A stretch of DNA of 32,000 nucleotides from Thermodesulfobacterium commune DSM 2178 (GTDB taxonomy: Bacteria; Desulfobacterota; Thermodesulfobacteria; Thermodesulfobacteriales; Thermodesulfobacteriaceae), in NCBI RefSeq assembly GCF_000734015.1, contig NZ_CP008796.1:1732046-1764045 (forward strand). Reading direction: 5' to 3'. This document shows, piece after piece, positions 10,103 to 32,000 of the stretch (position 1 is its first letter; every line of letters begins with the position of its first letter). A program made the translations under genes and the position numbers. The notes beneath the pieces are model-generated. The model did not search any database and was not told the DNA's origin. It saw only the letters and a program-made list of their open reading frames with translations.

Positions 10103-10108
10103 TGTTTT

Positions 10109-11287
10109 ATGTTTTTACAAGGTCCAAGGTCAAAACTTTTTGTCACCGGTGATCCTGGAGTAGGCAAAACTACCTTAGTCGAAAAGTTGACTAAATATTT
10201 ATCAAAAATAAACCTTCCGTTTAAAATAAGAGGTTTTTTTACCAAAGAAATCAGAGAAAACAGCAAGAGAAAAGGTTTTAAAATCATCGATCCTTTTCTT
10301 TCTAAAGAATTTCTCCTTGCCAAAAGAAAAGACCTTGTTAATCCCTCAGAGTCTATAAACACTTACCATACTGTAGGAAAATATGCGGTGTTTTTAGAGG
10401 GGTTAGAAACACTTCTGGAAGAGTATAAGAAAGATTTGATAGACGGGGCTCAGGTTTTTTGGGTGATAGATGAAGTAGGAAAGATGGAAGCTTTATCTAA
10501 GAGTTTTTGTCATTTTATAGAAAAGCTCTTAGGTTCTTCTTGTTTTTTACTTGCAACCGTAGGCAAAGGAGAAACACCTTTTTTAAAAAAGGTTTTTTCC
10601 TTTGAACCAGCTTTAAGGTGTGAAGTAACCACTGAGAACCGAGATTTTCTGGAAGAAAGACTGAAAATAGAGTTCAAAAGAAAGGGTAAGTTGATAGTTT
10701 TTGAGGGGATAGATGGAGCAGGTAAAACCACCGTTAGTAAGCTTTTGGTAAAAGCTTTAGAGGATCAGGGAGTTTCAGTTTTTTGGGGATGCGAACCTAC
10801 TTCTCAAGGCCCTTATGGTAAAGTTTTACGCGAAAAGCTGCAACAAAGAGAGGCCCATCCGTTAGAGATTAAACAACTTTTTTTGAAAGACCGGGAATGG
10901 AACGTAAAAAATTTTATTTTACCTAAGCTTAAGGAAGGAGCTTGGATAGTTTTAGACAGATATTATCTTTCTACTCTCTCCTATCAAGGAGCTCAAGGGT
11001 TTGACTTAAAAAGCCTTTTTATAAAAAACGAGACCATCGCTCCTTTGCCAGACTTGGTAGTTTACTTAGACCTAACGATAGATGAGGCCTTAAAAAGGCT
11101 TAACTCTACCAGAGACAACCTTACGTTTTTTGAAAAAACCGAGTTTTTAACCAAAGTAAGAGAAAACTACTTAAAAATCCTTCCTTGGTTTAATCACGTA
11201 AAATTAGATGCCACAAAACCTTTAGAGGAAAACCTGAATTATTTGATAGAAACTTTACACCGTAAATTTAAAAGTTCCCTTTCCTAA
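10109..11287 (+). CDS. tmk: Fusion protein: THEP1-like NTPase domain + thymidylate kinase domain
   Basis: 392 aa with two P-loops. The N-terminal half has KLFVTGDPGVGKTTLVEKL, GFFTKEIRE, GKYAV and VIDEVGKMEA (NTPase_1/THEP1 pattern). The C-terminal half has LIVFEGIDGAGKTT, EPT and DRYYLSTLSYQG (dTMP kinase pattern). Confidence 0.75.
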   Translation: MFLQGPRSKLFVTGDPGVGKTTLVEKLTKYLSKINLPFKIRGFFTKEIRENSKRKGFKIIDPFLSKEFLLAKRKDLVNPSESINTYHTVGKYAVFLEGLETLLEEYKKDLIDGAQVFWVIDEVGKMEALSKSFCHFIEKLLGSSCFLLATVGKGETPFLKKVFSFEPALRCEVTTENRDFLEERLKIEFKRKGKLIVFEGIDGAGKTTVSKLLVKALEDQGVSVFWGCEPTSQGPYGKVLREKLQQREAHPLEIKQLFLKDREWNVKNFILPKLKEGAWIVLDRYYLSTLSYQGAQGFDLKSLFIKNETIAPLPDLVVYLDLTIDEALKRLNSTRDNLTFFEKTEFLTKVRENYLKILPWFNHVKLDATKPLEENLNYLIETLHRKFKSSLS

Positions 11288-12241
11288 AATGTCGTGAAGA
11301 TGTAAAATCCCGGTAAGTTTTCCGTCAAAGTCCACAACCGGTAAAACCGTAATCAGATGTTTTTCCATCATTTCTAAGGCTTCGTAAGCTAAGGCATTTT
11401 CTTGTATGGTTTTAGGGTTTTTGGTCATTACTTCTTCTACTTTAAGATTATCTATAGAGCCATACTTTAAAAAAATCCTTCTTAAATCTCCGTCGGTGAT
11501 GATACCTGTAAGAGCATTAAATTGGTTTACGACTAACACGCATCCCAGCCTTTTTTGATCTATTTCTTTTATGGCTTCCTTTAAAAAGGTACCTTGTAAT
11601 ACCTTAGGAATGTTTTCACCGGTAAGCATTATTTCTTTAACCTTAACCTTAAGCCTTTCCCCTAAAGAACCTCCAGGATGATTTTTCCTGAAATCTTCAG
11701 ACCCTAAGCCCTTGATTTCAAACAGGCAAATAGCTAGGGCATCACCTAAGGCTAAACAAGCGGTAGTGCTGGTGGTAGGAGCTAAGTTAAAGGGACAAGC
11801 CTCTTTGGGTACCCTTCCGTTAATCACCACGTCTGAAAGCTGGGCTAACCGGCTATCTAAATTTCCTGTAATACTGATGATTTTTATGTTTCTTTTTTTT
11901 AGTATGGCTACCAACTCACAAACCTCAAGGGTATTCCCTGAATAAGAAAGGGCAAGGACCACATCTTCAGGGGTTACCATCCCAAGGTCTCCATGTAAAG
12001 CCTCTACAGGATGAAGAAAGAAAGCCGGAGTTCCGGTAGAAGAAAGGGTAGCTGCAATTTTCCTTCCTATAATACCACTTTTTCCTACCCCTGTAACTAC
12101 TATTCTTCCTTTAGTTTGTAAGATGATATCTACCGCTTTTACAAAGGAGCTATCAAGATTCTTTATAACTTCTTCTATCCCTAATTTTTCAGTTTCTAAC
12201 ACACTTTTAGCTTTTTCTAAAATCTCTCTTTCTTTTAACAT
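11255..12241 (-). CDS. kdsD: Arabinose-5-phosphate isomerase (KdsD/KpsF family: SIS + 2 CBS)
   Basis: 328 aa. SIS domain with VVTGVGKSGIIGRKIAATLSSTG and HGDLGM; C-terminal tandem CBS domains. The 3' end overlaps the convergent tmk-fusion gene by 33 nt. Confidence 0.85.
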   Translation of the reverse strand: MLKEREILEKAKSVLETEKLGIEEVIKNLDSSFVKAVDIILQTKGRIVVTGVGKSGIIGRKIAATLSSTGTPAFFLHPVEALHGDLGMVTPEDVVLALSYSGNTLEVCELVAILKKRNIKIISITGNLDSRLAQLSDVVINGRVPKEACPFNLAPTTSTTACLALGDALAICLFEIKGLGSEDFRKNHPGGSLGERLKVKVKEIMLTGENIPKVLQGTFLKEAIKEIDQKRLGCVLVVNQFNALTGIITDGDLRRIFLKYGSIDNLKVEEVMTKNPKTIQENALAYEALEMMEKHLITVLPVVDFDGKLTGILHLHDILGKGTFKFTV

Positions 12242-12262
12242 GTGTAAACCTCAGGTGAATTT

Positions 12263-12640
12263 TTAATGAAAAACAGGAGGGTTTATCGGGACTTCAAAAA
12301 GTATTTTTTGTTCTTCAACCCCTACCATTATAGAAAGAAGTTCTAAAACTTTGTTTATCATCCTGGTAATCATTTCTTCTCGATAGAAAAGAGCACTTAA
12401 TTTTTGCTCTATTTCTCCTGAGGGATCTGAAGAAAAATCTTTTTTCGAAAGGTGTTTGTAAAACTGGTAAAAAACTTTTCGCATATTGACCCGTTCTTTT
12501 ATGTTTTTCAAGATCTCTTCAGGTTCAAATGACTTTTGGGTAGATACAAGGTTTTGAAAATATTTTATGTCTTCTTCTTGAAATTGCCAAAAAAGGTCTA
12601 TCCAATCTTCAAGACTGATCACTTTATCTTGATTCTCCAT
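12263..12640 (-). CDS. Hypothetical protein (125 aa)
   Basis: ORF packed between the LysM hydrolase gene and kdsD on the same strand. I recognise no motif. Confidence 0.45.
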   Translation of the reverse strand: MENQDKVISLEDWIDLFWQFQEEDIKYFQNLVSTQKSFEPEEILKNIKERVNMRKVFYQFYKHLSKKDFSSDPSGEIEQKLSALFYREEMITRMINKVLELLSIMVGVEEQKILFEVPINPPVFH

Positions 12641-12681: not shown

Positions 12682-14292
12682 TTAAGACCCTATATCTTCA
12701 GAAAAAGAGGAAAGGTTGAACAAGACAGAGTTTTTAAGTACCCTTTTGGCCCCAACGAACCGGTTTCTGAAATAGTTGCTGTCTAAGGAATCTACAGCAA
12801 GCCCCTTTTTAGTAGAGGAAAAATGCATAAAACGGTTGTTTCCTATGTAAATACCTACATGGTTTATACTCTCAGGCCTTCTGTTTTTAGCAAAGAATAG
12901 TAAATCCCCGGGAATAAGTTCATCTTTAGACACGGAAACCCCTATCCAAAACTGTTCTCTTGAGGTTCTCGGAAGTGCTATTCCTAAACTCTCAAACACC
13001 TTTTTTACAAACATAGAACAGTCCATATATCCGTTGCCATTACCTCCTAACTTATAACGATAATCCTCATATTGTTTGGCTATCTCAATAAACTTGTCTT
13101 GCAATCGTTTTTCATCCTCTTGGTCTAAGAAAGATCTGTTTAAAAAGAAATCAGAAAAGCTGTGAGATTTTGTTTTTTCTTGAAAGGCAACCGCAGGGTT
13201 TTCTAACACAAAAGGTTCATCATCATAGGTGGGGATCTTTAAGGCCTGCCCCACAAAGATTACGTTGTCTTCAAGGTTGTTTAGTTTTTTAATATCCTCG
13301 ATAGGTATACCATACCTTAAAGAGATGTTGTATAAAGTTTCTCCTTCTTTAACCTTATGCCAGATAAAACCTGTGCCTGAAGGAGCTTCTATCTTGGGTA
13401 GGTTAACTTTTTCCTGGACTAAAACCCTTTTTTCTTTTACCTTAATTACCTTGCCTACTCTTAATTTAGTATGACTTAGATGATTAATTCTTTTTAGTTC
13501 TTCTACCGAAACTCCAAACTTTTTAGCGATGCTAAAAAGGGTGTCCCCCTTTTTTACCTTATAGGTTATCCATTGAATTTTCTCTTTTTGTCCTACCTTC
13601 TTGGGAGTAGCAGAGACAACCTCAGTTGAGATAACCCTTGGTGAGTCAACCTCTGGGGAGATAATCTGTGGTGGTTGTGAATCCACTTTTTGTGAAACCT
13701 CTTGTTGGGAACTTTCTACAGTTTTTTGTTCTAAAAATTCTATAGGTTTGTTAGAAGGAATTTTTACTATCAACGATTGTCCTACCTTTAAAGAATGGTC
13801 TGATAGCTGGTTTATTCTTTTTAGTTCTTCTACTGAGACTCCAAACTTTTTAGCGATGCTAAAAAGGGTATCTCCCTTTTTTACTACATAAACAGAAGGA
13901 CTTTCGGGTAAGGAGGTTTGTATTAAGTTTTTTGAGGAAGGAGCGGTTTTTGCTTCTGAGATAGGTTGGGTAGCAACAATCTTTATGGTTTGTCCAGGTT
14001 TTAATTGATGATTTTTAAGCTGATTAATTCTTTTAAGGTCTTCTACCGAGATCCCAAACTTTTTAGCGATACTGTAAAGGGTGTCTCCTTTTTGAATTTT
14101 ATAGGTAATGGGTTTGTTAGAAGTTTTAACAGCTTTTAACGAGGCTGACTTTTTAGTTTTTGAAGGTTTTTTAGAGGTAGTTTTGGTTTTTGCATCAACT
14201 TGATAGGCACCAAAAAGAAAAAAACAACAAACAACCCATAATATGGCTAAAAAAGGATTTTGAAATATTTTAGATTTGTACTGTTTTGACAT
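12682..14292 (-). CDS. Secreted peptidoglycan hydrolase: 4 x LysM + C-terminal NlpC/P60 domain
   Basis: N-terminal signal/TM segment. Four LysM modules (Y.V/IKKGDTL.SIAKKFG.SVEELKRIN.L). C-terminal NlpC/P60 with catalytic MDCSMFV and HVGIYIG. Confidence 0.85.
   Translation of the reverse strand: MSKQYKSKIFQNPFLAILWVVCCFFLFGAYQVDAKTKTTSKKPSKTKKSASLKAVKTSNKPITYKIQKGDTLYSIAKKFGISVEDLKRINQLKNHQLKPGQTIKIVATQPISEAKTAPSSKNLIQTSLPESPSVYVVKKGDTLFSIAKKFGVSVEELKRINQLSDHSLKVGQSLIVKIPSNKPIEFLEQKTVESSQQEVSQKVDSQPPQIISPEVDSPRVISTEVVSATPKKVGQKEKIQWITYKVKKGDTLFSIAKKFGVSVEELKRINHLSHTKLRVGKVIKVKEKRVLVQEKVNLPKIEAPSGTGFIWHKVKEGETLYNISLRYGIPIEDIKKLNNLEDNVIFVGQALKIPTYDDEPFVLENPAVAFQEKTKSHSFSDFFLNRSFLDQEDEKRLQDKFIEIAKQYEDYRYKLGGNGNGYMDCSMFVKKVFESLGIALPRTSREQFWIGVSVSKDELIPGDLLFFAKNRRPESINHVGIYIGNNRFMHFSSTKKGLAVDSLDSNYFRNRFVGAKRVLKNSVLFNLSSFSEDIGS
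13482..14096. repeat. Three ~75-bp near-identical direct repeats (LysM-encoding modules) inside the hydrolase gene
   Basis: Units at about 13482-13558, 13809-13884 and 14020-14096 share ...TTCTTTTTAGTTCTTCTAC.GA.ACTCCAAACTTTTTAGCGATGCTAAAAAGGGT... with only scattered mismatches. Confidence 0.7.
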
Positions 14293-20122: not shown

Positions 20123-21525
20123 CTTAACTTAAAAATAATACTATTATCAAAAGGAGGGGTAAAATGCCTAAGGTAGGTGTATATGTATGTCATTGTGGAG
20201 AAAACATTAAGGGTGCGGTTAATATCCAGGAAGTAGTAGAGTTTGCTAAGACCTTACCTGATGTAGTGGTTGTGAGGGACTATCAGTTTATGTGTTCTGA
20301 CCCTGGGCAAGAGTTGATCAAGAATGATATTAAAGAAGGGCTGGTTGACAGGGTTGTGGTTGCTGCTTGTACTCCAAGGACTCATGAGGCTATCTTTAGG
20401 GTAGCTGTTGAGTCAACTGGTTTGAACAAATATTTTTGTGAGATGGCTAACATAAGAGACCAGGATAGCTGGGCTCATTGGCATGATAAAGAGGGGGCTA
20501 CCAAAAAGGCTAAAAGGCTTGTTGCCAGTGCGGTGGCTAAGGTAAGATTGGCAGAGCCTTTAGAAGATCGCTTTCAGGATGCAGAAAAGTCGGTTTTGGT
20601 GGTAGGAGGTGGGATCGCAGGTATCTTTGCTGCTTTAGACCTGGCAACGATAGGTTTAAAGGTTTATCTGGTAGAAAAACAGCCTTCTATCGGTGGGGTT
20701 ATGGCCAAGCTTGACAAGACCTTTCCTACGATGGACTGTTCAGCTTGTATCTTAACCCCAAAGATGGTTGAGGTTGCCCAGCATCCTAACATCGAACTTA
20801 TCACCTATGCCGAGGTAGAAGATGTTAAGGGTTATGTAGGAAACTTTGAGGTTACCATCAGGAAAAAAGCCAGATATGTAGACTGGGATAAGTGCACAGG
20901 TTGTGGTCACTGTATGAACATTTGTCCTTCCAAGGCTCCAAACGAGTTTAACCTTGGTTTGGATAAAAGACCAGCCATTTACATAGAGTTTCCACAGGCA
21001 GTGCCTAAGAAGGCGGTGATAGACGCAGACAACTGTTTGTATTTTAAGACTTTGAGAAAGACAGGTAAGACAGCCTGTCAGATCTGTCAGAAGGGTATAC
21101 CTAGCAAGAACATCGAGGGTTGTCCGGCGGGGGCGATCAACTATGAGGACAAGGATGAGTTTATCAAGGTAAAGGTAGGGGCTGTAATACTGGCTACAGG
21201 GTTTAAGGTTATGGACAAACATCATTTTAAGGAATACTCCCCTAATTGTCCTGATGTTCTTACTGCCCTTGAGTTTGAAAGACTTATTTCTGCTACAGGG
21301 CCTACGGAAGGGCAGCTTAAAAGACTTTCTGACGGGCAAAAGCCCAAAAAATTAGCCTTCATCTCTTGTGTAGGAAGCAGAGATGAAAGACATCACAGTT
21401 ATTGTTCAAAGGTTTGTTGTATGTATATGTTTAAGCATGCCAAGATTCTCAAAGAGAAGTATCCAGACATAGACCTATATCTTTTCTTCATAGACGTGAG
21501 GACTGCAGGAAAGGATTTCGAAGAG

Positions 21526-21533
21526 TTTTATGT
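21526..21533. repeat. Target-site duplication, left copy (TTTTATGT)
   Basis: An 8-bp direct repeat abuts both IS ends. A single copy is present at the equivalent site of hdrA2 (…GAATTTTATGTTTAC…). Confidence 0.85.
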
Positions 21534-22872
21534 GACACTTGTCAAGAGAATTGTGTCTCCTTATAAAATCTCTTTACAAACATTTGCCTCAATTCGTATA
21601 AAGCAGACTTAATTAAAGGAAGTGGTTTTTGCCATCTCGTTTTCTGAATCCGACTTACTGTTATGTATATCGCAACCTCTGCTGTCTTGATTGATTGAAA
21701 ATATCCCCCTGTATTTACCCTTATCAGCTCTATCCTGCTATTTATATTCTCAACCACATTCGTCGTGTATATATACCTCCTCACCCCCTCAGGATATTTC
21801 TTATAAACAAAATAATGCTCCTTCTTTTTCAAAAGTCCCTTTATATAAGCTGGATACTTCTTCTCATAACTCTTACATAATTCCTCAAATCTATTTAAGG
21901 CCCTCTCATACTCCTCTATCCTCTTTATAATGCTTAACTCCTCATAAAATTTTTTAGCATCCTGCTTAGACATGTTCCTGTTGATGTTCCTTTGCATGTG
22001 TACAAAACAAAGCTGATGATCTGTCTCAGGAAAGAGGGCTTTTATGGCTTGAGTAAGGCCAGGAAAATCATCACTCACTATTACCATAACCCTCTTAACT
22101 CCCCTCTTTATCAAATCATTAAGTATCTGGAGCCAGTCCTCCTTCGTCTCTGAACCAAAATAAATGTAATAAGAAAGTAAATTTTTTCTTCCCTCCATAT
22201 CTATCCCGATGATATTATAAATAACTGCTTTTCTGATTCTGTTGGCTTCGGTATCTTTTATCTGAGTATGATAAGCGTCTATAAACATAGCAAACAAATT
22301 TTCTGGCAATTCTTTGGTTTTTAATTCTTTGGCTTGGTTATACAATTCTTCTTTAATTTCTTCTATTTGTTCTGGGGAGTAGGGGAGTTTCATAGATTGC
22401 AAGAGGGCTTTGATTTTATTGGGGGAGTAGCTTTGGAGAACGAGGTTAAGGATAAAGTCCTGGAAGGATTCATCAGCTTTTTGCCATTCAGGAGGAAGAA
22501 TAGCAGGTCTGAATTCAGATTTTCTATCTCTTGGGACAGAGATACCAAGGTTACCTAAGAAACAGGCAAGTTGTCTTTCATAGTAACCATTAGCTTTATT
22601 ATCAATACTATCTCTAAGGAATATTTCTCTTTCTTTTTTCATGAGAGCGTTTAAGAGGAGTGCAGCAGCCATTTTGATACCCTCTTTTGATTCAATTTTT
22701 GAGATTTCACTTAAAACTTTTTCTAAATCTAAGTCTAAGTTTTCCATTTTACAGACCTCCTGGTTAGTTTAGTCTTTTAGGTTTTATGTTATCATTAATT
22801 TAAAAAATATTAAAAATTTTTATTATGCCTCTAAAATATTTTATTAAAAGACACAATTTATATTCTACTCCC
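21534..22872 (-). mobile_element. IS256-family insertion sequence (1,339 bp), intact
   Basis: Boundaries come from comparison with the uninterrupted paralog hdrA2 and from the flanking 8-bp direct repeat TTTTATGT. Imperfect terminal repeats share AATTGTGTCT...TAAAAT (compare the AATTGTGT core of IS256 ends). There is a single 401-aa transposase ORF. Confidence 0.9.
21542..22747 (-). CDS. IS256-family (Mutator-type, Transposase_mut) DDE transposase
   Basis: 401 aa. Candidate DDE residues in MFIDAYH, IVSDDFPGL and TTNVVENINSRIE; the family motif CFVHMQRN is present. Confidence 0.9.
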   Translation of the reverse strand: MENLDLDLEKVLSEISKIESKEGIKMAAALLLNALMKKEREIFLRDSIDNKANGYYERQLACFLGNLGISVPRDRKSEFRPAILPPEWQKADESFQDFILNLVLQSYSPNKIKALLQSMKLPYSPEQIEEIKEELYNQAKELKTKELPENLFAMFIDAYHTQIKDTEANRIRKAVIYNIIGIDMEGRKNLLSYYIYFGSETKEDWLQILNDLIKRGVKRVMVIVSDDFPGLTQAIKALFPETDHQLCFVHMQRNINRNMSKQDAKKFYEELSIIKRIEEYERALNRFEELCKSYEKKYPAYIKGLLKKKEHYFVYKKYPEGVRRYIYTTNVVENINSRIELIRVNTGGYFQSIKTAEVAIYITVSRIQKTRWQKPLPLIKSALYELRQMFVKRFYKETQFS

Positions 22873-22880
22873 TTTTATGT
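22873..22880. repeat. Target-site duplication, right copy (TTTTATGT)
   Basis: See the left copy. An 8-bp TSD is typical of IS256-family elements. Confidence 0.85.
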
Positions 22881-23541
22881 TTCTACCAAACAACTTGGAG
22901 CCAAGGTAATAAGGGGAGGAAGGGTTTCAGCGGTAGATGTAAAACCTGATGGTAAGTTAAGGGTCAGGGCATATGACAACGACCTTTGCAGTCCGGTAGA
23001 GGTGGATGTAGACATGGTGGTTTTGGCAACAGCAATTGAGCCAGGTCCAGACACAGAGAAACTTGGAAGGCTTTTTAGTGCAAGTTGTGGTAGGGAAGGA
23101 TTTATCAGAGAAGTTCACACCAAACTTTATCCAGTAGATACCGCTTCTAAAGGTGTTTTTGTCTGCGGTTGTGTACAGGGACCTAAGGACATTCCTGATT
23201 CTGTTTCTCAAGCTAAAGCAGCAGCTGCTTCAGCAGCCGCAACCGTTATCCCAGGGAAGATTAAGTTTGAGGCTATAGCTGCCGAGGTGATAAGGGATAA
23301 GTGTAGTAGTTGTGGGGTATGTGTACAGCTTTGTCCATATAACGCGATAGTGCTTGAGGAGTATAACGGGGTTTATAAGGCCAAGGTTGAGCCAGCCCTT
23401 TGTGCTGGATGTGGAACCTGTGCAGCAGCTTGTCCTTCTAAGGCTATCATCTTTCATGGATTCTCTACCGAACAAGTGCTTGCGCAAATAGAGGCCATAG
23501 TGGAAGACTATCCAAATCTATAAACCAAAGGGGGTAGGATA

Positions 23542-24084
23542 ATGGAGAAGGAAGTGAATGTTATAAAGTTAGACGAGGAGTTTATGAAGGAGTTTTGGGA
23601 AGAGCTTGAGGCGATGGGGATGCCTGTTAAGGAGTTGAGGGAGTGTATCCAGTGTGGTAGGTGTGCGGCAACTTGTCCGATGGCGTTAGCTGGGTTGGAG
23701 TATTTTATCAAGAGGATAGTGCATGCGAGCATGTTGGGGTTGAAGGAGATATTTTTGGATGATTCATCGGTGTGGGGGTGTCAGAGTTGTAACCGGTGTG
23801 TGGAGGTATGTCCGATGGACATTAAGCCATATGAGTTGATACAGGCGATAAGGAGGGTGTGTTTTAGGGAGTATGCGATGCCATCTAACACGATAGATGG
23901 TTTGAGGAACTATTATGAGAGGGGGCATGCGGTGATAGTTAAGGGATTTGAGGAGAGGAGGAAGAAGGTGGGGTTACCTGAGATGCCACCTACGGTGATA
24001 GGGAATGAGGAGATGAGGAAGAAGTTTCAGGAGGTAATGAAGCAGACAGCGTTAGCAGAGGTAGCACCGTTTCCACTTGACTAA
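23542..24084 (+). CDS. hdrC: Heterodisulfide reductase subunit C
   Basis: 180 aa with two 4Fe-4S ferredoxin motifs, CIQCGRCAATCP and CQSCNRCVEVCP. SD AAGGGGG upstream. Confidence 0.9.
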   Translation: MEKEVNVIKLDEEFMKEFWEELEAMGMPVKELRECIQCGRCAATCPMALAGLEYFIKRIVHASMLGLKEIFLDDSSVWGCQSCNRCVEVCPMDIKPYELIQAIRRVCFREYAMPSNTIDGLRNYYERGHAVIVKGFEERRKKVGLPEMPPTVIGNEEMRKKFQEVMKQTALAEVAPFPLD

Positions 24085-24102: not shown

Positions 24103-25005
24103 ATGAAGAGGGTAGGATTGTTTTTAGGATGTAACATACCGTTGAGGAGGCCGGATATAGAGTATTCGATGAGGTATTTGTTGAAGGAGTTGGGGGTGGA
24201 GGTAGTGGATTTAGAGGGAGCGACATGTTGTCCGGCGTTTGGGACGATGCCATCGGTGGATTTAGTGGGGTGGTGTGTGGGATCAGCGTGGAACATGGCG
24301 ATAGCAGAGGGTAAGGGATTAGAGGTGATGGTAACGGGGTGTGGTAGTTGTTATGGGAGTTTGAATGAGGCGAGATATCACATGGAGAAGCATCCTGAGA
24401 TAAAGGAGAAGGTTAACGAGATACTGGGAAGTGTGGGTATGAGGTATGAGGGGAAGGTGAAGGTGTACAACATATACAATTATATATATGATTTTATTGG
24501 GTTAGAGGAGTTGAGGAAGGCGGTGAAGTATCCGTTGAATGGGATGGTATGTGGGGTGCAGGTAGGGTGTCACAATTTATGGCCGAGCAAGGCGTATCCG
24601 GCGAATGATGAGAATACGTTTCAGCCGAGGAGGTTGAGGGAGATATGTGAGGCGTTAGGAGGGGTAGCGCCGTGGTATAGCATGATGACAGATTGTTGTG
24701 GTATGGGTGCGTTGGGTAGTTTAGCGAGGGACAAGTCTTGGAGTTTGTTTAAGAAGAAGGCGAGTAAGATGATAGAGGAGATAAATCCTGAGGTATTTGT
24801 GACGGGGTGTAGTAGTTGTTTGTTGAGGTTTGACAACGATCAGGCTCAGATGAAGAAGGAGGGGGTAATAGATTTTGAGGTACCGGCGGTGCATGTGGCG
24901 CAGTTGGTTGCGTTGGCGTTGGGGGCGGAGCCGGAGAAGGCGGTAGGTTTGGCAGAGGTGCCAGTAGACAAGGTGGTAGAAAAAATAAGAGCAGGAGGTA
25001 AGTGA
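24103..25005 (+). CDS. hdrB: Heterodisulfide reductase subunit B
   Basis: 300 aa with two CCG-type Cys-rich domains (GATCCPAFG; MTDCCGMGA plus GCGSCY/GCSSC). SD AGGAGGG upstream. Confidence 0.9.
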   Translation: MKRVGLFLGCNIPLRRPDIEYSMRYLLKELGVEVVDLEGATCCPAFGTMPSVDLVGWCVGSAWNMAIAEGKGLEVMVTGCGSCYGSLNEARYHMEKHPEIKEKVNEILGSVGMRYEGKVKVYNIYNYIYDFIGLEELRKAVKYPLNGMVCGVQVGCHNLWPSKAYPANDENTFQPRRLREICEALGGVAPWYSMMTDCCGMGALGSLARDKSWSLFKKKASKMIEEINPEVFVTGCSSCLLRFDNDQAQMKKEGVIDFEVPAVHVAQLVALALGAEPEKAVGLAEVPVDKVVEKIRAGGK

Positions 25006-25006: not shown

Positions 25007-25417
25007 ATGAGTTGGGAGCCAAAGATAGTGGTTATAGCTTGTAACTGGTGTACCTATGCTGCGGCAGACCTGGCAGGTAGTTTAAGATATAGTTATCCAC
25101 CTACAGCATATATAGTAAGGGTTCCCTGTAGTGGTAGGGTAGAGCCTGAGTTTATAGTAGAGGCTTTAAAAACAGGAGCAGACGCTGTGTTAGTGGGTGG
25201 CTGACCTCCTGGGGACTGTCATTACCGGTCAGGTAATTACAAGGCATTGAGGCGTTTTAAGCTTTTGAAGAGGGTGTTAGAGGAGTTGGGAGTGGAAGGA
25301 GACAGGGTGAGGCTTGAGTGGATATCAGGTAGTGAGGGTAAGAAGTTTGCGGACATAATAACGGAGATGGATGCCAAGGTAAGGGAACTAGGACCAAATC
25401 CAATGAAGGGGGTATAG
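25007..25417 (+). CDS. mvhD: Hydrogenase delta subunit MvhD/VhuD-like, selenocysteine-containing (UGA at 25202-25204 read through)
   Basis: The ORF track stops at ...DAVLVGG. The same frame continues after TGA as PPGDCHYRSGNYKALRRFKLLKRVLEELGVEGDRVRLEWISGSEGKKF..., completing the MvhD pattern G-[C/U]-xxGDCHY, and ends at TAG 25415-25417, 3 nt before the mvhG ATG. A SECIS-like hairpin lies 12 nt after the UGA. Confidence 0.8.
25217..25241 (+). promoter_or_regulatory. SECIS-like stem-loop for mvhD UGA
   Basis: UGU-C-AUUACC [GGUCA] GGUAAU-U-ACA: 3 bp, a C/U mismatch, 6 bp, then a 5-nt loop containing GGU. It starts 12 nt 3' of the UGA, the position and loop type expected for a bacterial SECIS. 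Confidence 0.65.
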
Positions 25418-25420: not shown

Positions 25421-26377
25421 ATGAGTAAGCCTAAGTTAGCATATTACCTGGCAGGAGGATGTGCAGGTTGTGATATAAGTTTGGTAGATTTAGCTGATTT
25501 TTTGGTGGATGTGGTTAGTGCGGTGGACATAGTGTTTTTTGCGCCTACACTTGTGGATGTGAAGTATAAGGATTTTGAGGCATTGCCAGATGGGTCGGTG
25601 GATGTGGGTTTGTTGACAGGTAACATAAGGAACAAGGAACATGAGCATATGGCGAAGGTGATGAGGGCGAAGTGTAAGGTGTTGATAGCGTATGGTATAT
25701 GTGCGAGTTTAGGTGGTATCAAGGGTTTGGTTAATTTGTATAGTAATCAGGAGTTGTTGGAGAAGGCGTATAGGGATACGTTTAGTACAGACAATCCTAC
25801 AGGGGAGTTACCGAGTCCCAAGTATGTGGTAGATGGGAAGTATGAGTTGGAGTTGCCGGAGTTGACGGAGGCCAGAACGTTGGATCAGGTGGTGGAGGTG
25901 GATTATTACATAGGAGGGTGTCCGCCGCATTATGAGCATGTGAAGGCGGCGTTGGTTGCGTTGTTAGAGGGTAAGTTACCGCCGAGGGGTAGTTGGATAA
26001 CGATGGGGCATGCGGTGTGTGAGGTATGTTCGAGGAACCCTGTGTTGAGGGGGGAGAAGAAGAAGCCTGTATTAGAGGTTAGGAGGGTGATAGAAGGGGG
26101 AGTAGAGGAGGAGGCATGTTTGCTTGAGGCGGGGTATTTGTGTTTAGGTCCTGTTACACAGGGAGACTGTGGAGCGAGTTGTTTGAAGGTGAACGTGCCG
26201 TGTAGGGGATGTGGAGGGCCGATACCAGGGGTAAGGGATTATGGTTTGAGGGCGATAAGTGCGATAGCGAGTGCATTGGAAAACGAGGAGTTGGTAGACA
26301 GGATAGAGGACCCTGTGAGGTTGTTTTACCGGTATAGTTTGCCAGGGTCTATGATAGGGAAGAGGCTTGGAAAGTAG
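25421..26377 (+). CDS. mvhG: F420-non-reducing [NiFe]-hydrogenase small subunit (MvhG-like)
   Basis: 318 aa. N-terminal GGCAGCDISLVD and distal Fe-S motifs (GGCPP, CEVC, CLGPVTQGDCGASC, CRGCGGP). Confidence 0.85.
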   Translation: MSKPKLAYYLAGGCAGCDISLVDLADFLVDVVSAVDIVFFAPTLVDVKYKDFEALPDGSVDVGLLTGNIRNKEHEHMAKVMRAKCKVLIAYGICASLGGIKGLVNLYSNQELLEKAYRDTFSTDNPTGELPSPKYVVDGKYELELPELTEARTLDQVVEVDYYIGGCPPHYEHVKAALVALLEGKLPPRGSWITMGHAVCEVCSRNPVLRGEKKKPVLEVRRVIEGGVEEEACLLEAGYLCLGPVTQGDCGASCLKVNVPCRGCGGPIPGVRDYGLRAISAIASALENEELVDRIEDPVRLFYRYSLPGSMIGKRLGK

Positions 26378-26412: not shown

Positions 26413-27876
26413 ATGCAGAGGATAGAGATAAATCCCATGACAAGGCTTGAGGGTCATGGGAAGATAACGATATTTTTGGATGACAAGGGGAATGTGGACA
26501 ATGCCTTTTGGCAGGTAGTAGAGTTTATGGGATATGAGAAGTTTTTGATAGGTATGCCTATAGAGGAGGTACCAAGGACAGTAAGTACCGTCTGTGGGGT
26601 ATGTAGGGCTGTTCATTTTATGGCCTCGTTGAAGGCCGCAGATGAGGTATATGGGGTAAAGCCTACGGAGACGGCGAGGAAGTTGAGGGAGTTGTTTTAT
26701 TATGCGCATTATGTAGAGGACCACATGGAGATCATATATGCGTTGGGGTTGCCTGATTTTGTTTGTGGGCCTACGGCATCTCCAGCAGAGAGGAACTTGG
26801 TTGGGTTGATTATGAAGGTGGGAGTTGATGTAGGAAGAGATGTTTTGAAGAAGAGATTTGCTGCTGTTAGGATCTTTGAGATCCTTGGAGGAAGGCCAAG
26901 CCATCCAGTGGCAGCGATACCCGGGGGATGGAGCAAGAGGCTGAAGGAGGAGGAAAGGCAGGAGATACTGAGGTATGCGGATGAGTGTGTGGAGTTAGGG
27001 AAGTTTACGCTTAAGGCGTTTAAGGATTTGGTGTTAAGTAATCCTCAGTATGTGGAGTTGATAAAGGGGGACATTTACAAGGTGGTGACGAATTATTTGG
27101 GAACGGTGGATGAGGCTGGGAAGGTAACCTATTATGATGGTACACAGGTGTTTGTGGACACGAAGGGTAATGAGATAGGTAGGTTTAGTGGTAAGGAGTA
27201 TTTGGAGTGGATAGCAGAGAGGACGTTGCCGTGGAGTTATCAGAAGGCACCGTACATTAAGAAGTTAGGTTGGAAGGGGATAGTGGATGGAGAGGGAACG
27301 AGTTTATACAGTGTGGGGCCGCTAGCGAGGTTTAACGTGGGGAATGGATTTGACACACCTGGTGCGCAGGAGGCGTATGAGGAGATGGTAGAGTTTTTTG
27401 GAGGGAAGCCTGTGCATAACATACTGGGTTATCACTGGGCGAGGGCGATAGAGTTGTTACATTGTGCGGAGAAGGTGAAGGAGCTTGCGTCAGACGAGAG
27501 TATCACAGCTCCTGACGTGAGGCAGGAGTTAGGTGAGGCATTAGGAGAGGGAGTAGGGATTGTTGAGGCAGCGAGGGGAACGCTTATTCATCATTACAAG
27601 ACAGACAGTAAGGGTATAGTAACTGACGCAAACATCATAGTTGCAACCACCCACAACAAAGGGTCTATAAACATAGCGATCAAGAGGGCGGCAGAGAATT
27701 TTATCAAGGAAGGAAAGGTAGATGAGGGAATTTTAAACTTGGTAGAGATGGCTTACAGGCCCTATGACCTTTGTCTTGCCTGTTCTACCCACACCTTACC
27801 TGGGAAGTTGCCTGTGCAGATAGACATCTACACCAAGGACGGAGAGCTGGTAAAAAGTTTGAGAAACTTTAAATAA
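26413..27876 (+). CDS. mvhA: F420-non-reducing [NiFe]-hydrogenase large subunit (MvhA-like)
   Basis: 487 aa. N-terminal RLEGHG and Ni-binding CGVCRAVH; C-terminal Ni-binding DLCLACSTH (both Cys, not Sec). Confidence 0.9.
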   Translation: MQRIEINPMTRLEGHGKITIFLDDKGNVDNAFWQVVEFMGYEKFLIGMPIEEVPRTVSTVCGVCRAVHFMASLKAADEVYGVKPTETARKLRELFYYAHYVEDHMEIIYALGLPDFVCGPTASPAERNLVGLIMKVGVDVGRDVLKKRFAAVRIFEILGGRPSHPVAAIPGGWSKRLKEEERQEILRYADECVELGKFTLKAFKDLVLSNPQYVELIKGDIYKVVTNYLGTVDEAGKVTYYDGTQVFVDTKGNEIGRFSGKEYLEWIAERTLPWSYQKAPYIKKLGWKGIVDGEGTSLYSVGPLARFNVGNGFDTPGAQEAYEEMVEFFGGKPVHNILGYHWARAIELLHCAEKVKELASDESITAPDVRQELGEALGEGVGIVEAARGTLIHHYKTDSKGIVTDANIIVATTHNKGSINIAIKRAAENFIKEGKVDEGILNLVEMAYRPYDLCLACSTHTLPGKLPVQIDIYTKDGELVKSLRNFK

Positions 27877-27900
27877 AATTCAAATTTTCTGATCTCAATT

Positions 27901-27931
27901 AAGTAGGGGGATCTCCCCCTACTTTCTTTTA
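27901..27931 (+). terminator. Rho-independent terminator after mvhA
   Basis: An 11-nt arm AAGTAGGGGGA (27901-27911) pairs perfectly with TCCCCCTACTT (27914-27924), followed by TCTTTT. It lies 25 nt after the mvhA stop. Confidence 0.75.
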
Positions 27932-28142
27932 ATCTATTGCTTTTAAAATCTTAAATTAAAACTGACAGGTTTTCAAATACACCTGTTCAAAAAGTGTCAT
28001 TTAGGATAGCTCTTCATGTGTAAACTGTGTTTTGTATAAATATAAAAAGTAAAAATTTTAAAAAACAAATAAAAATGTTTAAATTTTTTAGAAAAGTTAA
28101 ATAAAAAAAGGAAAAAATAAGAAAAAAAGCTTTTAAGTCTAT

Positions 28143-28171
28143 TTGACTTTGATTATTAGTATTTTATAAAT
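28143..28171 (+). promoter_or_regulatory. Putative promoter of hdrA2
   Basis: TTGACT (28143-28148), a 16-nt spacer, then TATAAA (28165-28170). It is embedded in TCTATTTGACTT (28138-28149), identical to the motif upstream of hdrA1. A long A-rich tract lies upstream. Confidence 0.4.
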
Positions 28172-28216
28172 AAATAATGAAGGGACTAATAGAATATCAA
28201 AATAAGGGGGTTAGAC

Positions 28217-29059
28217 ATGCCAAAGGTTGGGGTTTATGTATGTCATTGTGGTGAGAACATTAAAGGTGGGCTTAATATCCAGGAGTTGGTAGAGTTTGCC
28301 AAAACATTGCCTGATGTGACAGTAGTGAGAGATTATTTCTTCATGTGTTCTGACCCTGGGCAGGAGTTGATCAAGAATGATATTAAAGAGGGTTTAGTTG
28401 ACAGGGTGGTAGTTGCTGCTTGTACTCCAAGAACTCATGAGCCTATTTTTAGGGCAGCGGTAGAGTCAGCAGGTTTAAACAAGTATTTTTGTGAAATAGC
28501 TAACATAAGAGACCAGAATACCTGGGCTCACTGGGGGAAGATTAAAGAGGCTACAGACAAGGCTAAAAGGATCATAAAAAGCGCGGTAGCTAAGGTAAGA
28601 TTGGCTGAACCTTTAGAAGACCGTTTTGAACCTATGGAAAAGTCTGTTTTGGTGGTAGGTGGTGGAATTGCAGGTATGTTTGCTGCTTTAGACTTAGCTA
28701 ACATGGGTTTAAAGGTTTATCTGGTAGAGAAAAGGCCTTCTATAGGCGGGAACATGGCTATGCTTGACAAAACGTTCCCGACTATGGACTGTTCGGCTTG
28801 AATACTCACCCCCAAGATGGGCGAGGTCGCCCAGCATCCTAACATCGAACTTATCACCTATGCCGAGGTAGAAGATGTTAAGGGTTATGTAGGTAACTTT
28901 GAAGTTACCATAAGAAAAAAAGCCAGGTATGTAGACTGGGATAAGTGTACAGGTTGTGGTCACTGTATGAACATTTGTCCTTCCAAGGCTCCAAACGAGT
29001 TTAACCTTGGTCTGGATAAGAGACCGGCTATTTATATACAATTTCCTCAGGCAGTGCCC
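28217..29059 (+). pseudogene. hdrA: Heterodisulfide reductase subunit A, Sec-type copy (hdrA2), 5' part (codons 1-281) ending at a rearrangement junction
   Basis: Colinear with hdrA1 20164..21006 without indels and roughly nine-tenths identical by eye. In-frame TGA 28799-28801 lies exactly where hdrA1 has Cys (DCSA-C/U-ILTPKM). Homology ends after ...FPQAVP at 29059, where the sequence switches to the reverse complement of the hdrB 3' end. Confidence 0.85.
28816..28835 (+). promoter_or_regulatory. SECIS-like stem-loop for hdrA2 UGA
   Basis: Core 28818-28833 is UGGGCG [AGGU] CGCCCA: a 6-bp GC-rich stem with a GGU-containing tetraloop, starting 16 nt 3' of the UGA. The Cys-type copy has UGGUUG AGGU UGCCCA at the same place, which cannot form the full stem. 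Confidence 0.6.
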
Positions 29060-29062
29060 ATA

Positions 29063-29965
29063 TCACTTACCTCCTGCTCTTATTTTTTCTACCACCTTGT
29101 CTACTGGCACCTCTGCCAAACCTACCGCCTTCTCCGGCTCCGCCCCCAACGCCAACGCAACCAACTGCGCCACATGCACCGCCGGTACCTCAAAATCTAT
29201 TACCCCCTCCTTCTTCATCTGAGCCTGATCGTTGTCAAACCTCAACAAACAACTACTACACCCCGTCACAAATACCTCAGGATTTATCTCCTCTATCATC
29301 TTACTCGCCTTCTTCTTAAACAAACTCCAAGACTTGTCCCTCGCTAAACTACCCAACGCACCCATACCACAACAATCTGTCATCATGCTATACCACGGCG
29401 CTACCCCTCCTAACGCCTCACATATCTCCCTCAACCTCCTCGGCTGAAACGTATTCTCATCATTCGCCGGATACGCCTTGCTCGGCCATAAATTGTGACA
29501 CCCTACCTGCACCCCACATACCATCCCATTCAACGGATACTTCACCGCCTTCCTCAACTCCTCTAACCCAATAAAATCATATATATAATTGTATATGTTG
29601 TACACCTTCACCTTCCCCTCATACCTCATACCCACACTTCCCAGTATCTCGTTAACCTTCTCCTTTATCTCAGGATGCTTCTCCATGTGATATCTCGCCT
29701 CATTCAAACTCCCATAACAACTACCACACCCCGTTACCATCACCTCTAATCCCTTACCCTCTGCTATCGCCATGTTCCACGCTGATCCCACACACCACCC
29801 CACTAAATCCACCGATGGCATCGTCCCAAACGCCGGACAACATGTCGCTCCCTCTAAATCCACTACCTCCACCCCCAACTCCTTCAACAAATACCTCATC
29901 GAATACTCTATATCCGGCCTCCTCAACGGTATGTTACATCCTAAAAACAATCCTACCCTCTTCAT
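29063..29965 (-). CDS. hdrB: Heterodisulfide reductase subunit B, second copy (identical to 24103..25005)
   Basis: The 300-aa translation is identical to the first copy. It lies within the perfect inverted repeat arm. Confidence 0.85.
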   Translation of the reverse strand: MKRVGLFLGCNIPLRRPDIEYSMRYLLKELGVEVVDLEGATCCPAFGTMPSVDLVGWCVGSAWNMAIAEGKGLEVMVTGCGSCYGSLNEARYHMEKHPEIKEKVNEILGSVGMRYEGKVKVYNIYNYIYDFIGLEELRKAVKYPLNGMVCGVQVGCHNLWPSKAYPANDENTFQPRRLREICEALGGVAPWYSMMTDCCGMGALGSLARDKSWSLFKKKASKMIEEINPEVFVTGCSSCLLRFDNDQAQMKKEGVIDFEVPAVHVAQLVALALGAEPEKAVGLAEVPVDKVVEKIRAGGK

Positions 29966-29983
29966 CTCTTCCCTCCTTTTTCT

Positions 29984-30526
29984 TTAGTCAAGTGGAAACG
30001 GTGCTACCTCTGCTAACGCTGTCTGCTTCATTACCTCCTGAAACTTCTTCCTCATCTCCTCATTCCCTATCACCGTAGGTGGCATCTCAGGTAACCCCAC
30101 CTTCTTCCTCCTCTCCTCAAATCCCTTAACTATCACCGCATGCCCCCTCTCATAATAGTTCCTCAAACCATCTATCGTGTTAGATGGCATCGCATACTCC
30201 CTAAAACACACCCTCCTTATCGCCTGTATCAACTCATATGGCTTAATGTCCATCGGACATACCTCCACACACCGGTTACAACTCTGACACCCCCACACCG
30301 ATGAATCATCCAAAAATATCTCCTTCAACCCCAACATGCTCGCATGCACTATCCTCTTGATAAAATACTCCAACCCAGCTAACGCCATCGGACAAGTTGC
30401 CGCACACCTACCACACTGGATACACTCCCTCAACTCCTTAACAGGCATCCCCATCGCCTCAAGCTCTTCCCAAAACTCCTTCATAAACTCCTCATCCAAC
30501 TTTATAACATTCACTTCCTTCTCCAT
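29984..30526 (-). CDS. hdrC: Heterodisulfide reductase subunit C, second copy (identical to 23542..24084)
   Basis: The 180-aa translation is identical to the first copy. It lies within the perfect inverted repeat arm. Confidence 0.85.
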   Translation of the reverse strand: MEKEVNVIKLDEEFMKEFWEELEAMGMPVKELRECIQCGRCAATCPMALAGLEYFIKRIVHASMLGLKEIFLDDSSVWGCQSCNRCVEVCPMDIKPYELIQAIRRVCFREYAMPSNTIDGLRNYYERGHAVIVKGFEERRKKVGLPEMPPTVIGNEEMRKKFQEVMKQTALAEVAPFPLD

Positions 30527-30556
30527 TATCCTACCCCCTTTGGTTTCTTTCTTTTA

Positions 30557-31709
30557 TTAATCAACCGTTATAGCTCTAATCTGCTCTATTATCTGCTCGG
30601 TGGTAAATCCATGGAAAACGATGGCTTTGGAAGGACAAGCTGCTGCACAGGTTCCACATCCAGCACAAAGGGCTGGCTCAACCTTGGCCTTATAAACCCC
30701 TTTATACTCTTCAAGCACTATCGCGTTATATGGACAAAGCTGTATACATACACCACAACTACTACACTTATCCCTTATCACCTCGGCAGATATAGCTTCA
30801 AACCTGATTTTACCTGGTAATACCAAAGCTGCCGCCGCAGAAGAAGCAGCCCTTGATTGAGCGATAGATTCTGGAATATCCTTAGGCCCCTGCACACATC
30901 CTGCGATAAATACGCCTTTAGCAGAAGTTTCTACTGGATAAAGTTTGGTGTGAACTTCTCTGATAAATCCTTCCCTACCACAACTGGCACTAAAAAGCCT
31001 TCCAAGTTTCTCTGTGTCTGGACCTGGCTCAATTGCTGTTGCCAAAACCACCATGTCTACATCCACCTCTACCGGACTGCAAAGGTCGTTGTCATATGCC
31101 CTGACCCTTAACTTACCATCAGGTTTTACATCTACCGCTGAAACCCTTCCTCCCCTTATCACCTTGGCTCCAAGCTTCTTGGTGTAAACATAAAATTCCT
31201 CAAAATCCTTTCCTGCAGTCCTCACATCTATAAAGAAAAGATAAAGGTCTATGTCTGGATACTTCTCTTTGAGAATCCTTGCATGTTTCATGATATACAT
31301 ACAACAAACTTTAGAACAATAAGTATGATATCTTTCGTCTCTACTTCCTACACAGGCTATAAAAGCCATTTTCTTTGGTTTTTGCCCGTCAGAAAGTCTT
31401 TTAAGCTGCCCCTCCGTAGGACCTGTAGGAGAAAGAATACGTTCAAACTCCATAGCAGTAACCACATCTGGACAGTTAGGAGAATATTCTTTAAAATGAT
31501 ATTTTTCCATCGGTTTAAAACCTGTTGCCAAGATCACAGCCCCTACCTTTACCTTGATAAACTCATCCTTGTCCTCATAGTTGATCGCCCCCGCCGGACA
31601 ACCCTCGATGTTCTTGCTAGGTATACCCTTCTGACAGATCTGACAGGCTGTCTTGCCTGTCTTTCTCAAAGTCTTAAAATACAAACAGTTGTCTGCATCT
31701 ATCACTGCC
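30557..31709 (-). pseudogene. hdrA: hdrA2 3' part (about codons 284-666), inverted relative to its 5' part and fused upstream to an IS end and a GGDEF fragment
   Basis: The minus-strand translation from 31708 reads AVIDADNCLYFKTLRK... through to ...IRAITVD-stop. It is colinear with hdrA1 21013..21533 + 22881..23523 and uninterrupted at the hdrA1 IS site (EEFYVYTKKLGAKV). Confidence 0.85.
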
Positions 31710-31742
31710 TTATAAGGAGACACAATTCTCTTGACAAGTGTC
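31710..31742 (-). mobile_element. Solo 33-nt terminal fragment of the IS256-family element
   Basis: The reverse complement equals GACACTTGTCAAGAGAATTGTGTCTCCTTATAA, identical to 21534..21566 (the end nearest the transposase stop). No IS interior follows it. Confidence 0.85.
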
Positions 31743-32000
31743 CCTACTTCCTCAAAAGGGTAGGTCGCTATACTCTGTCTGATTCTTTCAGCTATAACCA
31801 AAGCTTCTTCTTTAATAGTCCTAGGACAAAGGATTACAAACTCCTCTCCTCCCCATCGAGCTGGCAAATCGGTTTGCCTGATGTTTTCTTTTATCAAACG
31901 GGAAACCTCTTTTAACACATAATCTCCCCTATCATGCCCATAAGTATCGTTAATAACTTTAAAATTATCGAGGTCAAAAAGTATAACAGAAAAGGAGGTC
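31743..32000 (-). pseudogene. GGDEF-domain (diguanylate cyclase) gene fragment, 3'-truncated by the IS end; 5' end outside window
   Basis: The minus-strand frame reads ...FSVILFDLDNFKVINDTYGHDRGDYVLKEVSRLIKENIRQTDLPARWGGEEFVILCP...YPFEEVG and then runs directly into the IS end. The distal part of the GGDEF domain is missing. Confidence 0.75.

Follow-up and report, generated by a model that had tools for sequence, protein, structure and literature searches.

Introduction

Insertion sequences (ISs) of the IS256 family have been associated with genome rearrangements and with the inactivation of genes, as for IS256 in Staphylococcus aureus, where a one-megabase inversion is among the cases (PMC5065196). 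The transposase of this family acts on an end-to-end junction of the element, and for ISCth4 a 6-bp spacer at that junction proved best for coupled cleavage and integration, with target duplications of 8 bp and a preference for AT-rich targets (PMC7780238). Selenocysteine (Sec) containing forms of HdrA, MvhD and MvhA2DG have been described in Desulfobacterium autotrophicum and, as a Sec/Cys isoenzyme pair of Hdr-associated hydrogenase, Vhu and Vhc in Methanococcus (PMC2702500). The kind of event considered below (disruption of a gene in one strain in association with an IS), the Sec-type HdrA, MvhD and Mvh proteins of sulfate reducers, and the pairing of Sec-type genes with cysteine-type back-ups are all already known. 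The present analysis concerns a stretch of 32,000 nucleotides (hereafter 'the window'; contig NZ_CP008796.1, positions 1,732,046 to 1,764,045) from Thermodesulfobacterium commune DSM 2178, a hot-spring sulfate reducer that is the type strain and the reference genome of its genus, in which the Sec-type gene hdrA2 is found in two pieces on opposite strands. The reading favored here, with a probability of about 0.72, is that a real, recent and strain-specific rearrangement in DSM 2178 destroyed this selenoprotein gene.

The genome sequence (CP008796) was obtained by Sanger sequencing at approximately 9x coverage from clone libraries of 2-10 kb, and its finishing included clone walking, the polymerase chain reaction and verification of repeats (PMC4319511). 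A second T. commune assembly is the draft GCA_000746435.1, the start of whose scaffold KN050845.1 is referred to below as L019 or L122. Environmental relatives were located by exact-protein look-ups, which yielded many contigs 97-100% identical to the window; one of these, L018, part of a 154-kb environmental contig, served as the wild-type reference. Repeat structure was determined by a repeat search together with base-by-base comparison of the window, and domains were assigned with Pfam profiles.

The split gene and its inverted block

A first-pass annotation, made from the sequence alone, had proposed that hdrA2 is split and that its 3' part, together with hdrC and hdrB, is inverted relative to its 5' part; the coordinates and the Pfam assignments agree with that proposal, with the FAD/Rossmann, Fer4, CCG, GGDEF and Transposase_mut domains all found in the expected pieces. 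The 5' part matches the Cys-type gene hdrA1 residue for residue as far as ...FPQAV and ends at 29058, after exactly 280 codons plus the CC of Pro281, so that the split lies where it had been placed and the count of 281 codons to 29059 is corrected by a base. The 3' part begins on the minus strand at 31709, as had been stated, and runs to a stop codon at 30557-30559, giving 383 full codons in place of the estimated 384; hdrC and then hdrB follow downstream on the same strand. The inverted piece measures 2,651 bp in all, and comprises hdrA2 from codon 284 to its end, hdrC, hdrB and the ATG of mvhD2. Between the two halves of hdrA2 only the six bases TAAGAA are missing (four, if an ambiguous AA is counted to hdrA2), which corresponds to the roughly two lysine codons noted at first pass as unaccounted for: the break site reads CAGGCAGTGCC TAAGAA GGCAGTGATAG in nine of nine environmental contigs. 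The two breaks in hdrA2 are thus 4-6 nt apart, in line with the first-pass annotation.

The two joints differ in character. That on the left, at 29058/29059, reads GTGCC/CATATCAC (in wider context, ...GGCAGTGCC/CATATCACTTACC) and is blunt, without microhomology. The sequence CATATCAC is the reverse complement of GTGATATG, which consists of the hdrB stop codon, one base and the ATG of the following mvhD; base-by-base comparison of the block end (GTGATATG/GGCAC) with the first copy (GTGATATG/AGTTGG) carries the hdrB-mvhD homology 4 nt beyond the hdrB stop (TGA-T-ATG), through the mvhD start codon, rather than the 3 nt first reported. The right joint, read on the minus strand at 31710/31709, is CCTTATAA/GGCAGTGATAG, or more broadly GGDEF...GACACTTGTCAAGAGAATTGTGTCTCCTTATAA/GGCAGTGATAG, that is, IS positions 1-33 followed by hdrA2. 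It displays 2 nt of microhomology (the ambiguous AA), and CCTTATAA of the IS agrees there with CCTAAGAA of hdrA2 at 6 of 8 positions. The segment 31710..31742 is a 100% copy of the IS end at 21534..21566, and its tip faces a GGDEF-domain gene that is cut by the IS end at position 110 of the 161-position Pfam profile and then leaves the window. This break accordingly lies 33 nt inside an IS end, as had been recognized, and with that 33-nt end at the right joint the earlier statement that the IS forms part of the history is borne out.

The rearrangement leaves unusual reading frames at both ends of the block. Across the left joint the hdrA2 frame runs antisense into hdrB, which produces, as the first reading had it, the nonsense tail of the open reading frame (ORF) at 28817..29347; exact protein look-up found no record of that chimeric ORF. 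On the minus strand, at 30557..32000, one open frame runs from the truncated GGDEF gene through the 33-nt remnant of the IS into the 3' part of hdrA2 (...ATYPFEEVG-TLVKRIVSPYK-AVIDADNCLYF...), followed by hdrC-hdrB, and a GGDEF-IS-HdrA2 fusion protein with read-through into hdrC-hdrB is therefore possible as judged from the frame.

The Sec-type character of the gene is evident in its 5' fragment, where a TGA (Sec195) at 28799-28801 aligns with a cysteine of hdrA1 (CSA(TGA)ILTPKM versus CSACILTPKM); the TGA-interrupted frame of 194 + 466 amino acids is conserved in many contigs. A hairpin resembling a selenocysteine insertion sequence (UGGGCG-AGGU-CGCCCA, 28818..28833) lies 19 nt after the UGA of hdrA2, with a folding z-score of only -0.5; in hdrA1 this hairpin is disrupted.

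The arrangement in environmental relatives

Uninterrupted hdrA2 genes, 98.9-100% identical and all colinear, were found in nine environmental contigs, within the series hdrA2-hdrC-hdrB-mvhD2G2A2-hycI. The intact gene reads ...FPQAVPKKAVIDAD... across the break site (the spanning wild stretch being GTGCCTAAGAAGGCAGTG) and has a direct repeat, AGGCAGTG...AGGCAGTG, at the break. When hdrA2 was rebuilt from its 5' part, TAAGAA and its 3' part and then compared with the gene of L018, 7 of 2001 nucleotides and 2 of 667 residues differed, and the rebuilt gene carried no other damage; because it so nearly matches the wild one, and because the relatives are intact, the split is recent and specific to the strain.

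The wild contigs also establish the operon context. Within L018, positions 1..12585 hold two complete tandem operons (also found in L108), of which the first is of Cys type, hdrA1-hdrC-hdrB-mvhD(136 aa)-mvhG-mvhA(487 aa), and the second, on the same strand, is of Sec type, hdrA2(194+466 aa)-hdrC-hdrB-mvhD(65+56)-mvhG-mvhA(63+418)-hycI, with in-frame TGA codons at hdrA codon 195, mvhD codon 66 and mvhA codon 64. The second hdrB is directly followed by mvhD2-mvhG2-mvhA2-hycI in L018, and every wild contig has mvhD2 beside hdrB, never an IS or a GGDEF gene. The first-pass annotation had suggested a search of related genomes for colinear hdrA(Sec)-hdrC-hdrB beside a GGDEF gene: the colinear genes were found, in the nine contigs, but their neighbor is mvhD2. 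Its further view, that the split records a genuine two-break inversion, fails on the same ground, given that the inverted block keeps the ATG of this wild neighbor of hdrB2 and that the window has an IS end and a GGDEF gene in its place.

For the GGDEF fragment itself (31743..32000), a collection of 5.8 billion clustered proteins contains no relative above 58% identity, and a comparison with genome contigs returned only unrelated GGDEF genes at 59% identity or less, so that the fragment may lie in a strain-specific region. The hdr and mvh genes around it have, by contrast, many near-identical environmental copies. A 23-mer from the 5' side of hdrA2 gave no match in a metagenome collection that evidently lacks hot-spring samples.

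Two further features of the wild operons were noted in passing. The TGA of Sec-type mvhA (L018 11092..11094, and likewise in L019/L122) replaces the second cysteine of the N-terminal RxCGxC nickel-binding motif (STICGV(TGA)RGVH), a position at which the mvhA of the window has TGT (26602..26604), and the C-terminal DxCxxC motif of Sec-type mvhA retains its cysteines. Known [NiFeSe] hydrogenases have Sec in the C-terminal motif. In addition, two environmental contigs, L110 (Logan SRR29026321) and L118 (SRR34848657), carry a single operon, hdrA1CB-mvhDGA, followed directly by hycI-PHO4-PhoU; these would be either natural variants or collapsed assemblies, and unequal recombination between the tandem operons would be expected to produce such an arrangement.

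The second assembly

Every piece that L019/L122 shares with the window is 100% identical to it, and the draft breaks hdrA2 at exactly 29058 and 31709, the same two nucleotides. Because two technologies give these same two nucleotides within unique sequence, the break in hdrA2 can be considered real. The draft joins the broken ends to other partners: the 5' end of hdrA2 (...GTGCC, 29058) is followed by AAATACCT... (29888, inside the reverse complement of hdrB), and the 3' part (GGCAGTG..., 31709) is preceded by ...GGCTTTG (30630). The unique piece 27460..29058 is itself preceded in the draft by an 11-nt filler, TTGGTTGTGGA, plus AAATACCT, and the draft then has a gap of N; AAATACCT therefore stands on both sides of the piece as an 8-bp duplication, the length of an IS target duplication, with one of the two joints containing the unexplained filler.

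The draft was accepted neither as plain truth nor as plain artifact. Its unique piece begins at the first single-nucleotide polymorphism (SNP) between the strain's two mvhA paralogs (repeat boundary 27459), which suggests a boundary made by the assembler, and this start and the 11-nt filler look artifactual; both joints at the hdrA2 tips, on the other hand, contain novel sequence, which an assembler should not invent. The same scaffold also demonstrates the fate of the genes once downstream of hdrB2. The series mvhD2-mvhG2-mvhA2(TGA codon 64)-hycI-PHO4-PhoU occurs elsewhere in the strain, on a draft scaffold that continues for approximately 272 kb (L122, its first 18.7 kb, reaches the ATP synthase genes), and the Sec-type mvhDGA-hycI cluster thus cannot have been lost by simple deletion.

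The hdrA1 operon, the insertion sequence and the repeats

The Cys-type operon of the window is disrupted as well. An IS has inserted in hdrA1, with an 8-bp target duplication, TTTTATGT, on either side (21526-21533 and 22873-22880); with the element removed, the gene differs from its wild counterpart at 3 of 2013 nucleotides, and it is intact in the environmental relatives L001, L108 and L110. Exact protein look-up found no record of the interrupted hdrA1 ORF. Given differences of only 3/2013 and 7/2001 nucleotides, the disruptions of hdrA1 and hdrA2 are both recent and strain-specific. The element encodes an intact 401-aa transposase (PF00872), has identical 1339-bp copies in L011-L016 and so is multi-copy, and is named by one source as IS256 family, with several identical transposase accessions of the prefix AIH in T. 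commune; its ends are GACACTTGTCAAGAGAATTGTGTCTC (left) and GGGAGTAGAATATAAATTGTGTCTTT (right).

Long repeats link the two operons. The segment 23575..25009 is a 100% reverse complement of 29059..30493 over 1,435 nt (hdrC, hdrB and 4 nt past the hdrB stop), and the hdrA1 and hdrA2 parts form a mosaic of 66-100% identity. Lying 4,049 bp apart, these perfect inverted repeats could, from their placement, flip the intervening mvhDGA-hdrA2' segment by homologous recombination, and the two resulting isomers are indistinguishable by assembly, since they have all joint sequences in common. Such a flip was considered as a route back to hdrA2 and rejected, as it gives a symmetrical isomer and never restores the gene.

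Painting of SNPs against both L018 operons further indicated that the mvhDGA genes of the window combine sequence of the Cys-type (type 1) and the Sec-type (type 2) wild operons, type 2 making up most of them and type 1 their 3' end; they differ from the strain's other mvhDGA (L019) at 20 positions, all within 26496..26613 and 27459..27789. The mvhD gene, with its TGA in the context VLVGG(TGA)PPGDCH, is identical to the wild Sec-type mvhD2 despite sitting in the Cys operon. Comparisons of this kind point to two Hdr-Mvh operons that exchange sequence heavily. As separate observations, hdrC and hdrB are identical between their copies in the window and largely so in L018, and other operon mosaics occur in environmental contigs. 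The features of the locus are collected in Table 1. Elsewhere in the window, three direct repeats of approximately 109 nt (76-79% identical, 13461..14109) in a minus-strand LysM/NlpC-P60 gene (12682..14292) correspond to that gene's LysM domain repeats.

Table 1. Features of the Hdr-Mvh locus in the window, with the corresponding draft joints (L019 coordinates) in the last row
Feature	Coordinates	Strand	Basis or remark
hdrA1 (Cys type), 5' part, ending at IS insertion	20164..21533	+	ORF; colinear with intact hdrA1 of L001, L108
IS256-family element, 1339 bp	21534..22872	-	transposase gene 21542..22747 on minus strand; Transposase_mut E=1e-63
hdrA1, 3' part	22873..23523	+	ORF and alignment
hdrC copy 1	23542..24084	+	ORF
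hdrB copy 1	24103..25005	+	ORF
mvhD, in-frame TGA at 25202-25204	25007..25417	+	translation
mvhG	25421..26377	+	translation
mvhA, Cys at codon 64	26413..27876	+	translation; product = AIH04800.1
Terminator-like hairpin (strong) after mvhA	27901..27924	+	
Promoter-like site upstream of hdrA2	28149..28178	+	consensus match only
hdrA2 (Sec type), 5' fragment	28217..29058	+	last 26 nt resemble IS left end
Reverse complement of T+ATG (base after hdrB stop plus former mvhD2 start)	29059..29062	-	left end of inverted block
hdrB copy 2, inverted	29063..29965	-	Pfam CCG domain
hdrC copy 2, inverted	29984..30526	-	Pfam
hdrA2, 3' fragment, residues 284-667 plus stop	30557..31709	-	in frame with upstream IS remnant and GGDEF fragment
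IS left-end remnant, 33 nt (IS positions 1-33)	31710..31742	-	100% identical repeat
GGDEF-domain gene fragment, runs off window	31743..32000	-	Pfam
Draft joints and filler	L019 5225..5250, 6835..6850, 7575..7595		equivalent to L122 reversed

Reconstruction of the rearrangement

The ancestral state is given by the wild relatives, in which the Cys-type operon hdrA1CB-mvhD1G1A1 and, after it, the Sec-type operon hdrA2CB-mvhD2G2A2-hycI stand in tandem on one strand. Relative to this state, the two window joints use both sides of a single break in hdrA2, whose 5' part ends GTGCC and whose 3' part starts GGCAGTG, and the other two sides were not ancestral neighbors, hdrB2 having adjoined mvhD2 where the window has the IS remnant and GGDEF fragment. 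Because the block keeps the mvhD ATG, hdrB2 still adjoined mvhD2 when the break occurred; a simple inversion is insufficient, because a flip alone would place the reverse complement of the hdrA2 3' part beside codon 2 of mvhD2, and IS position 33 is there instead. At least three breakpoints, or two successive events reusing one junction exactly, would be needed to reach the observed layout. The breakpoints would fall in hdrA2, in mvhD2 between ATG and AGT, and at IS position 33/34 in a copy of the element within the GGDEF gene. If no material is lost, the simplest arrangement would consist of two adjacent inverted segments, the 2.65-kb block and a large segment from mvhD2 to the GGDEF gene, and predicts a third junction outside the window, at which the reverse complement of mvhD2 from codon 2 would meet IS position 34; its parts would be AGTTGGGAACC from mvhD codon 2 and CCTTATAAAATCTC, or AATCTC, from IS position 26-34.

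Three considerations weigh against this reconstruction. The partners of the broken ends disagree between the assemblies, with 29058/29059 and 31709/IS33 in the window and 29058/29888 and 31709/30630 in L019, so that either at least one assembly is locally wrong, or the draft tangled, or the DNA preparations were not the same. The third junction would be marked by transposase proteins with predicted tails (from IS position 34 or 26); five of these were looked up and are not on record, a result that is uninformative if the product is annotated as a pseudogene. The joints, finally, are known from the assembled sequences. The break in hdrA2 is nonetheless taken as real; its exact neighbors are those given by the window assembly only, and the local architecture around it is uncertain.

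Several other histories were weighed against a recent rearrangement. One would be a simple reciprocal two-break inversion of 29059..31709 in an ancestor whose hdrB stop and TATG already abutted IS position 33. It would give the same final layout, with hdrA2 ends 4-6 nt apart and a block exactly bounded by them, but it requires that the mvhD2 ATG had earlier been joined to IS position 33 and that a later break fell precisely at this joint, and neither the wild contigs, all of which have mvhD2 after hdrB and none an IS or GGDEF gene, nor the protein collection, with no relative of the GGDEF fragment above 58% identity, offers such an ancestor; this course of events is improbable. An assembly artifact, in which hdrA2 is intact or otherwise arranged in the cells and the block was mis-joined, is unlikely. 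Perfect repeats abound at the locus (the 1,435-bp hdrCB pair, an approximately 3-kb identical stretch from hdrB through mvhDG to the 5' part of mvhA, and the multi-copy IS), the Sanger coverage was only 9x, and the draft has different partners, an N gap, the 11-nt filler and a piece starting at the repeat boundary 27459. Neither joint, however, coincides with a boundary of hdrA1/hdrA2 homology: related, divergent hdrA sequence continues across the break, at a place where repeats would not give rise to a misjoin, and the surroundings of the break are unique, 12-18% different from hdrA1, which leaves an assembler no reason to stop. Two independent assemblies from different technologies do stop there, at the same two nucleotides, and the finishing of CP008796 covered clone walking and the verification of repeats. 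A programmed segment, inverted by a site-specific recombinase as a phase-variation switch of hdrA2, can be dismissed with near certainty and was rejected. A 7-bp inverted repeat does bound the block (GGCAGTG at 29050-29056, CACTGCC at 31703-31709), but this is hdrA2's own direct repeat, AGGCAGTG, as it appears after inversion; a return flip would leave the gene broken, with 6 nt lost and a foreign right flank, the 32 kb contain no invertase or integrase ORF, and nine of nine environmental contigs are colinear, so that the state is both irreversible and absent from the population.

If the rearrangement is accepted as real, its trigger must still be considered. One candidate is a double-strand break that arose at random in hdrA2 and was mended by illegitimate end joining or by template switching, in which case any resemblance to IS ends would be coincidental; the other is the resident transposase. 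Under the latter hypothesis the wild hdrA2 site would mimic an IS circle junction, with a tip like the IS left end, a 6-bp AT-rich spacer and a tip like the IS right end, and the transposase, cutting at each tip, may have released the spacer. The left break end, as its reverse complement GGCACTGCCTGAGGAAATTGTATATA, matches the IS left end in register at 15 of 26 positions (5/6 at the tip and 7/8 in the AATTGTGT box), a score reached by only 178 of 136,846 background positions (top 0.13%). Among 124,230 combinations of position and spacer (5-7 bp), 87 attain the paired-tip score (chance about 0.001), which is not extreme, and the equivalent site in hdrA1 scores 12 and 9, lower than that in hdrA2. 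The cognate transposase is present in the genome, intact and in identical copies at several loci, with a fresh insertion in hdrA1 that displays an 8-bp duplication. The loss of six bases (the optimal IS256-family junction spacer), the exactness of the tips, their retention in both assemblies with different partners, and the 8-bp duplication of AAATACCT in L019 all fit off-target processing of such a pseudo-junction and, with the high score of the left tip, count against a random break. On the other side, the right break end begins GGCAGT where the IS has GGGAGT, a weak match overall (11/26), the scoring of IS ends was chosen post hoc, after the resemblance had been noticed, and the window joints have no common 8-bp target duplication (CATATCAC versus TTATAAGG).

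Because that duplication is absent, one concerted integration by the transposase fails to account for the window; the versions considered (inversion of a small or of a large segment, and integration of an operon circle of 6.7 kb after excision) were rejected, as each fits one window joint only. The lack of a common duplication, together with joints that are blunt or have 2 nt of microhomology and the 6/8 match of CCTTATAA and CCTAAGAA at the right joint, speaks for a random break with illegitimate joining. That explanation is a plausible one and at least as likely as processing of the hdrA2 pseudo-junction by the transposase, which is possible, with modest support, and is put forward tentatively. 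The further suggestion that hdrA2, as a mimic of an IS256-family circle junction cut by the resident transposase, constitutes a recurrent fragile site is more doubtful.

Consequences for the strain

With its promoter-like region kept, the hdrA2 5' fragment would yield at best 281 residues plus the nonsense tail, and no intact HdrA2 would be possible. Since hdrA2 is split and hdrA1 is cut by the IS, neither Hdr-Mvh operon has an intact HdrA. Wild populations keep both hdrA genes intact, and conclusions on Hdr-Mvh drawn from the genome of DSM 2178, or from experiments with it, would misrepresent the species. The locus also illustrates that annotation fragments can conceal a whole selenoprotein operon. 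The value of the analysis lies in a corrected picture of a reference genome, useful for the physiology of the strain, and in a testable idea on off-target transposase action.

Comparison with known systems

The locus resembles rearrangements previously associated with IS256 in having a multi-copy, active element of that family, an insertion in hdrA1 with its 8-bp duplication, and IS sequence at one joint, and in that the event is recent and confined to one strain. It departs from the classical cases in that those invert between two full IS copies by homologous recombination, whereas here one joint has 33 nt of IS, lying inside the IS end and not at its tip, and the joint at 29058/29059 has none. 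Invertons and shufflons likewise invert a gene segment relative to a promoter-proximal part; the hdrA2 block differs in having no recombinase and no meaningful inverted repeats, in being irreversible, and in not being seen in the population.

A further comparison, if the transposase was involved, is with the junctions of terminal inverted repeats formed by copy-out/paste-in elements such as ISCth4/IS256 (PMC7780238), the (IS)2 form of IS30 (PMC9333248) and IS2 (PMC3299598): in wild hdrA2, two tips resembling IS ends lie 6 bp apart, the break occurs at both and the spacer is lost, and an 8-bp duplication (at the L019 joint) and AT-rich targets are likewise found. The differences are that hdrA2 offers only pseudo-ends (15/26 and 11/26), that the window joints have no common target duplication, and that acceptance of such a site by this transposase is hypothetical. 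As regards gene content, the Cys-type and Sec-type operons of the wild relatives, with a TGA that aligns with a cysteine in hdrA, mvhD and mvhA, parallel the Vhu/Vhc pair and the Sec-type proteins of D. autotrophicum; they differ in forming two complete six-gene operons that lie in tandem and recombine with one another, and in that both hdrA genes are broken in the type strain.

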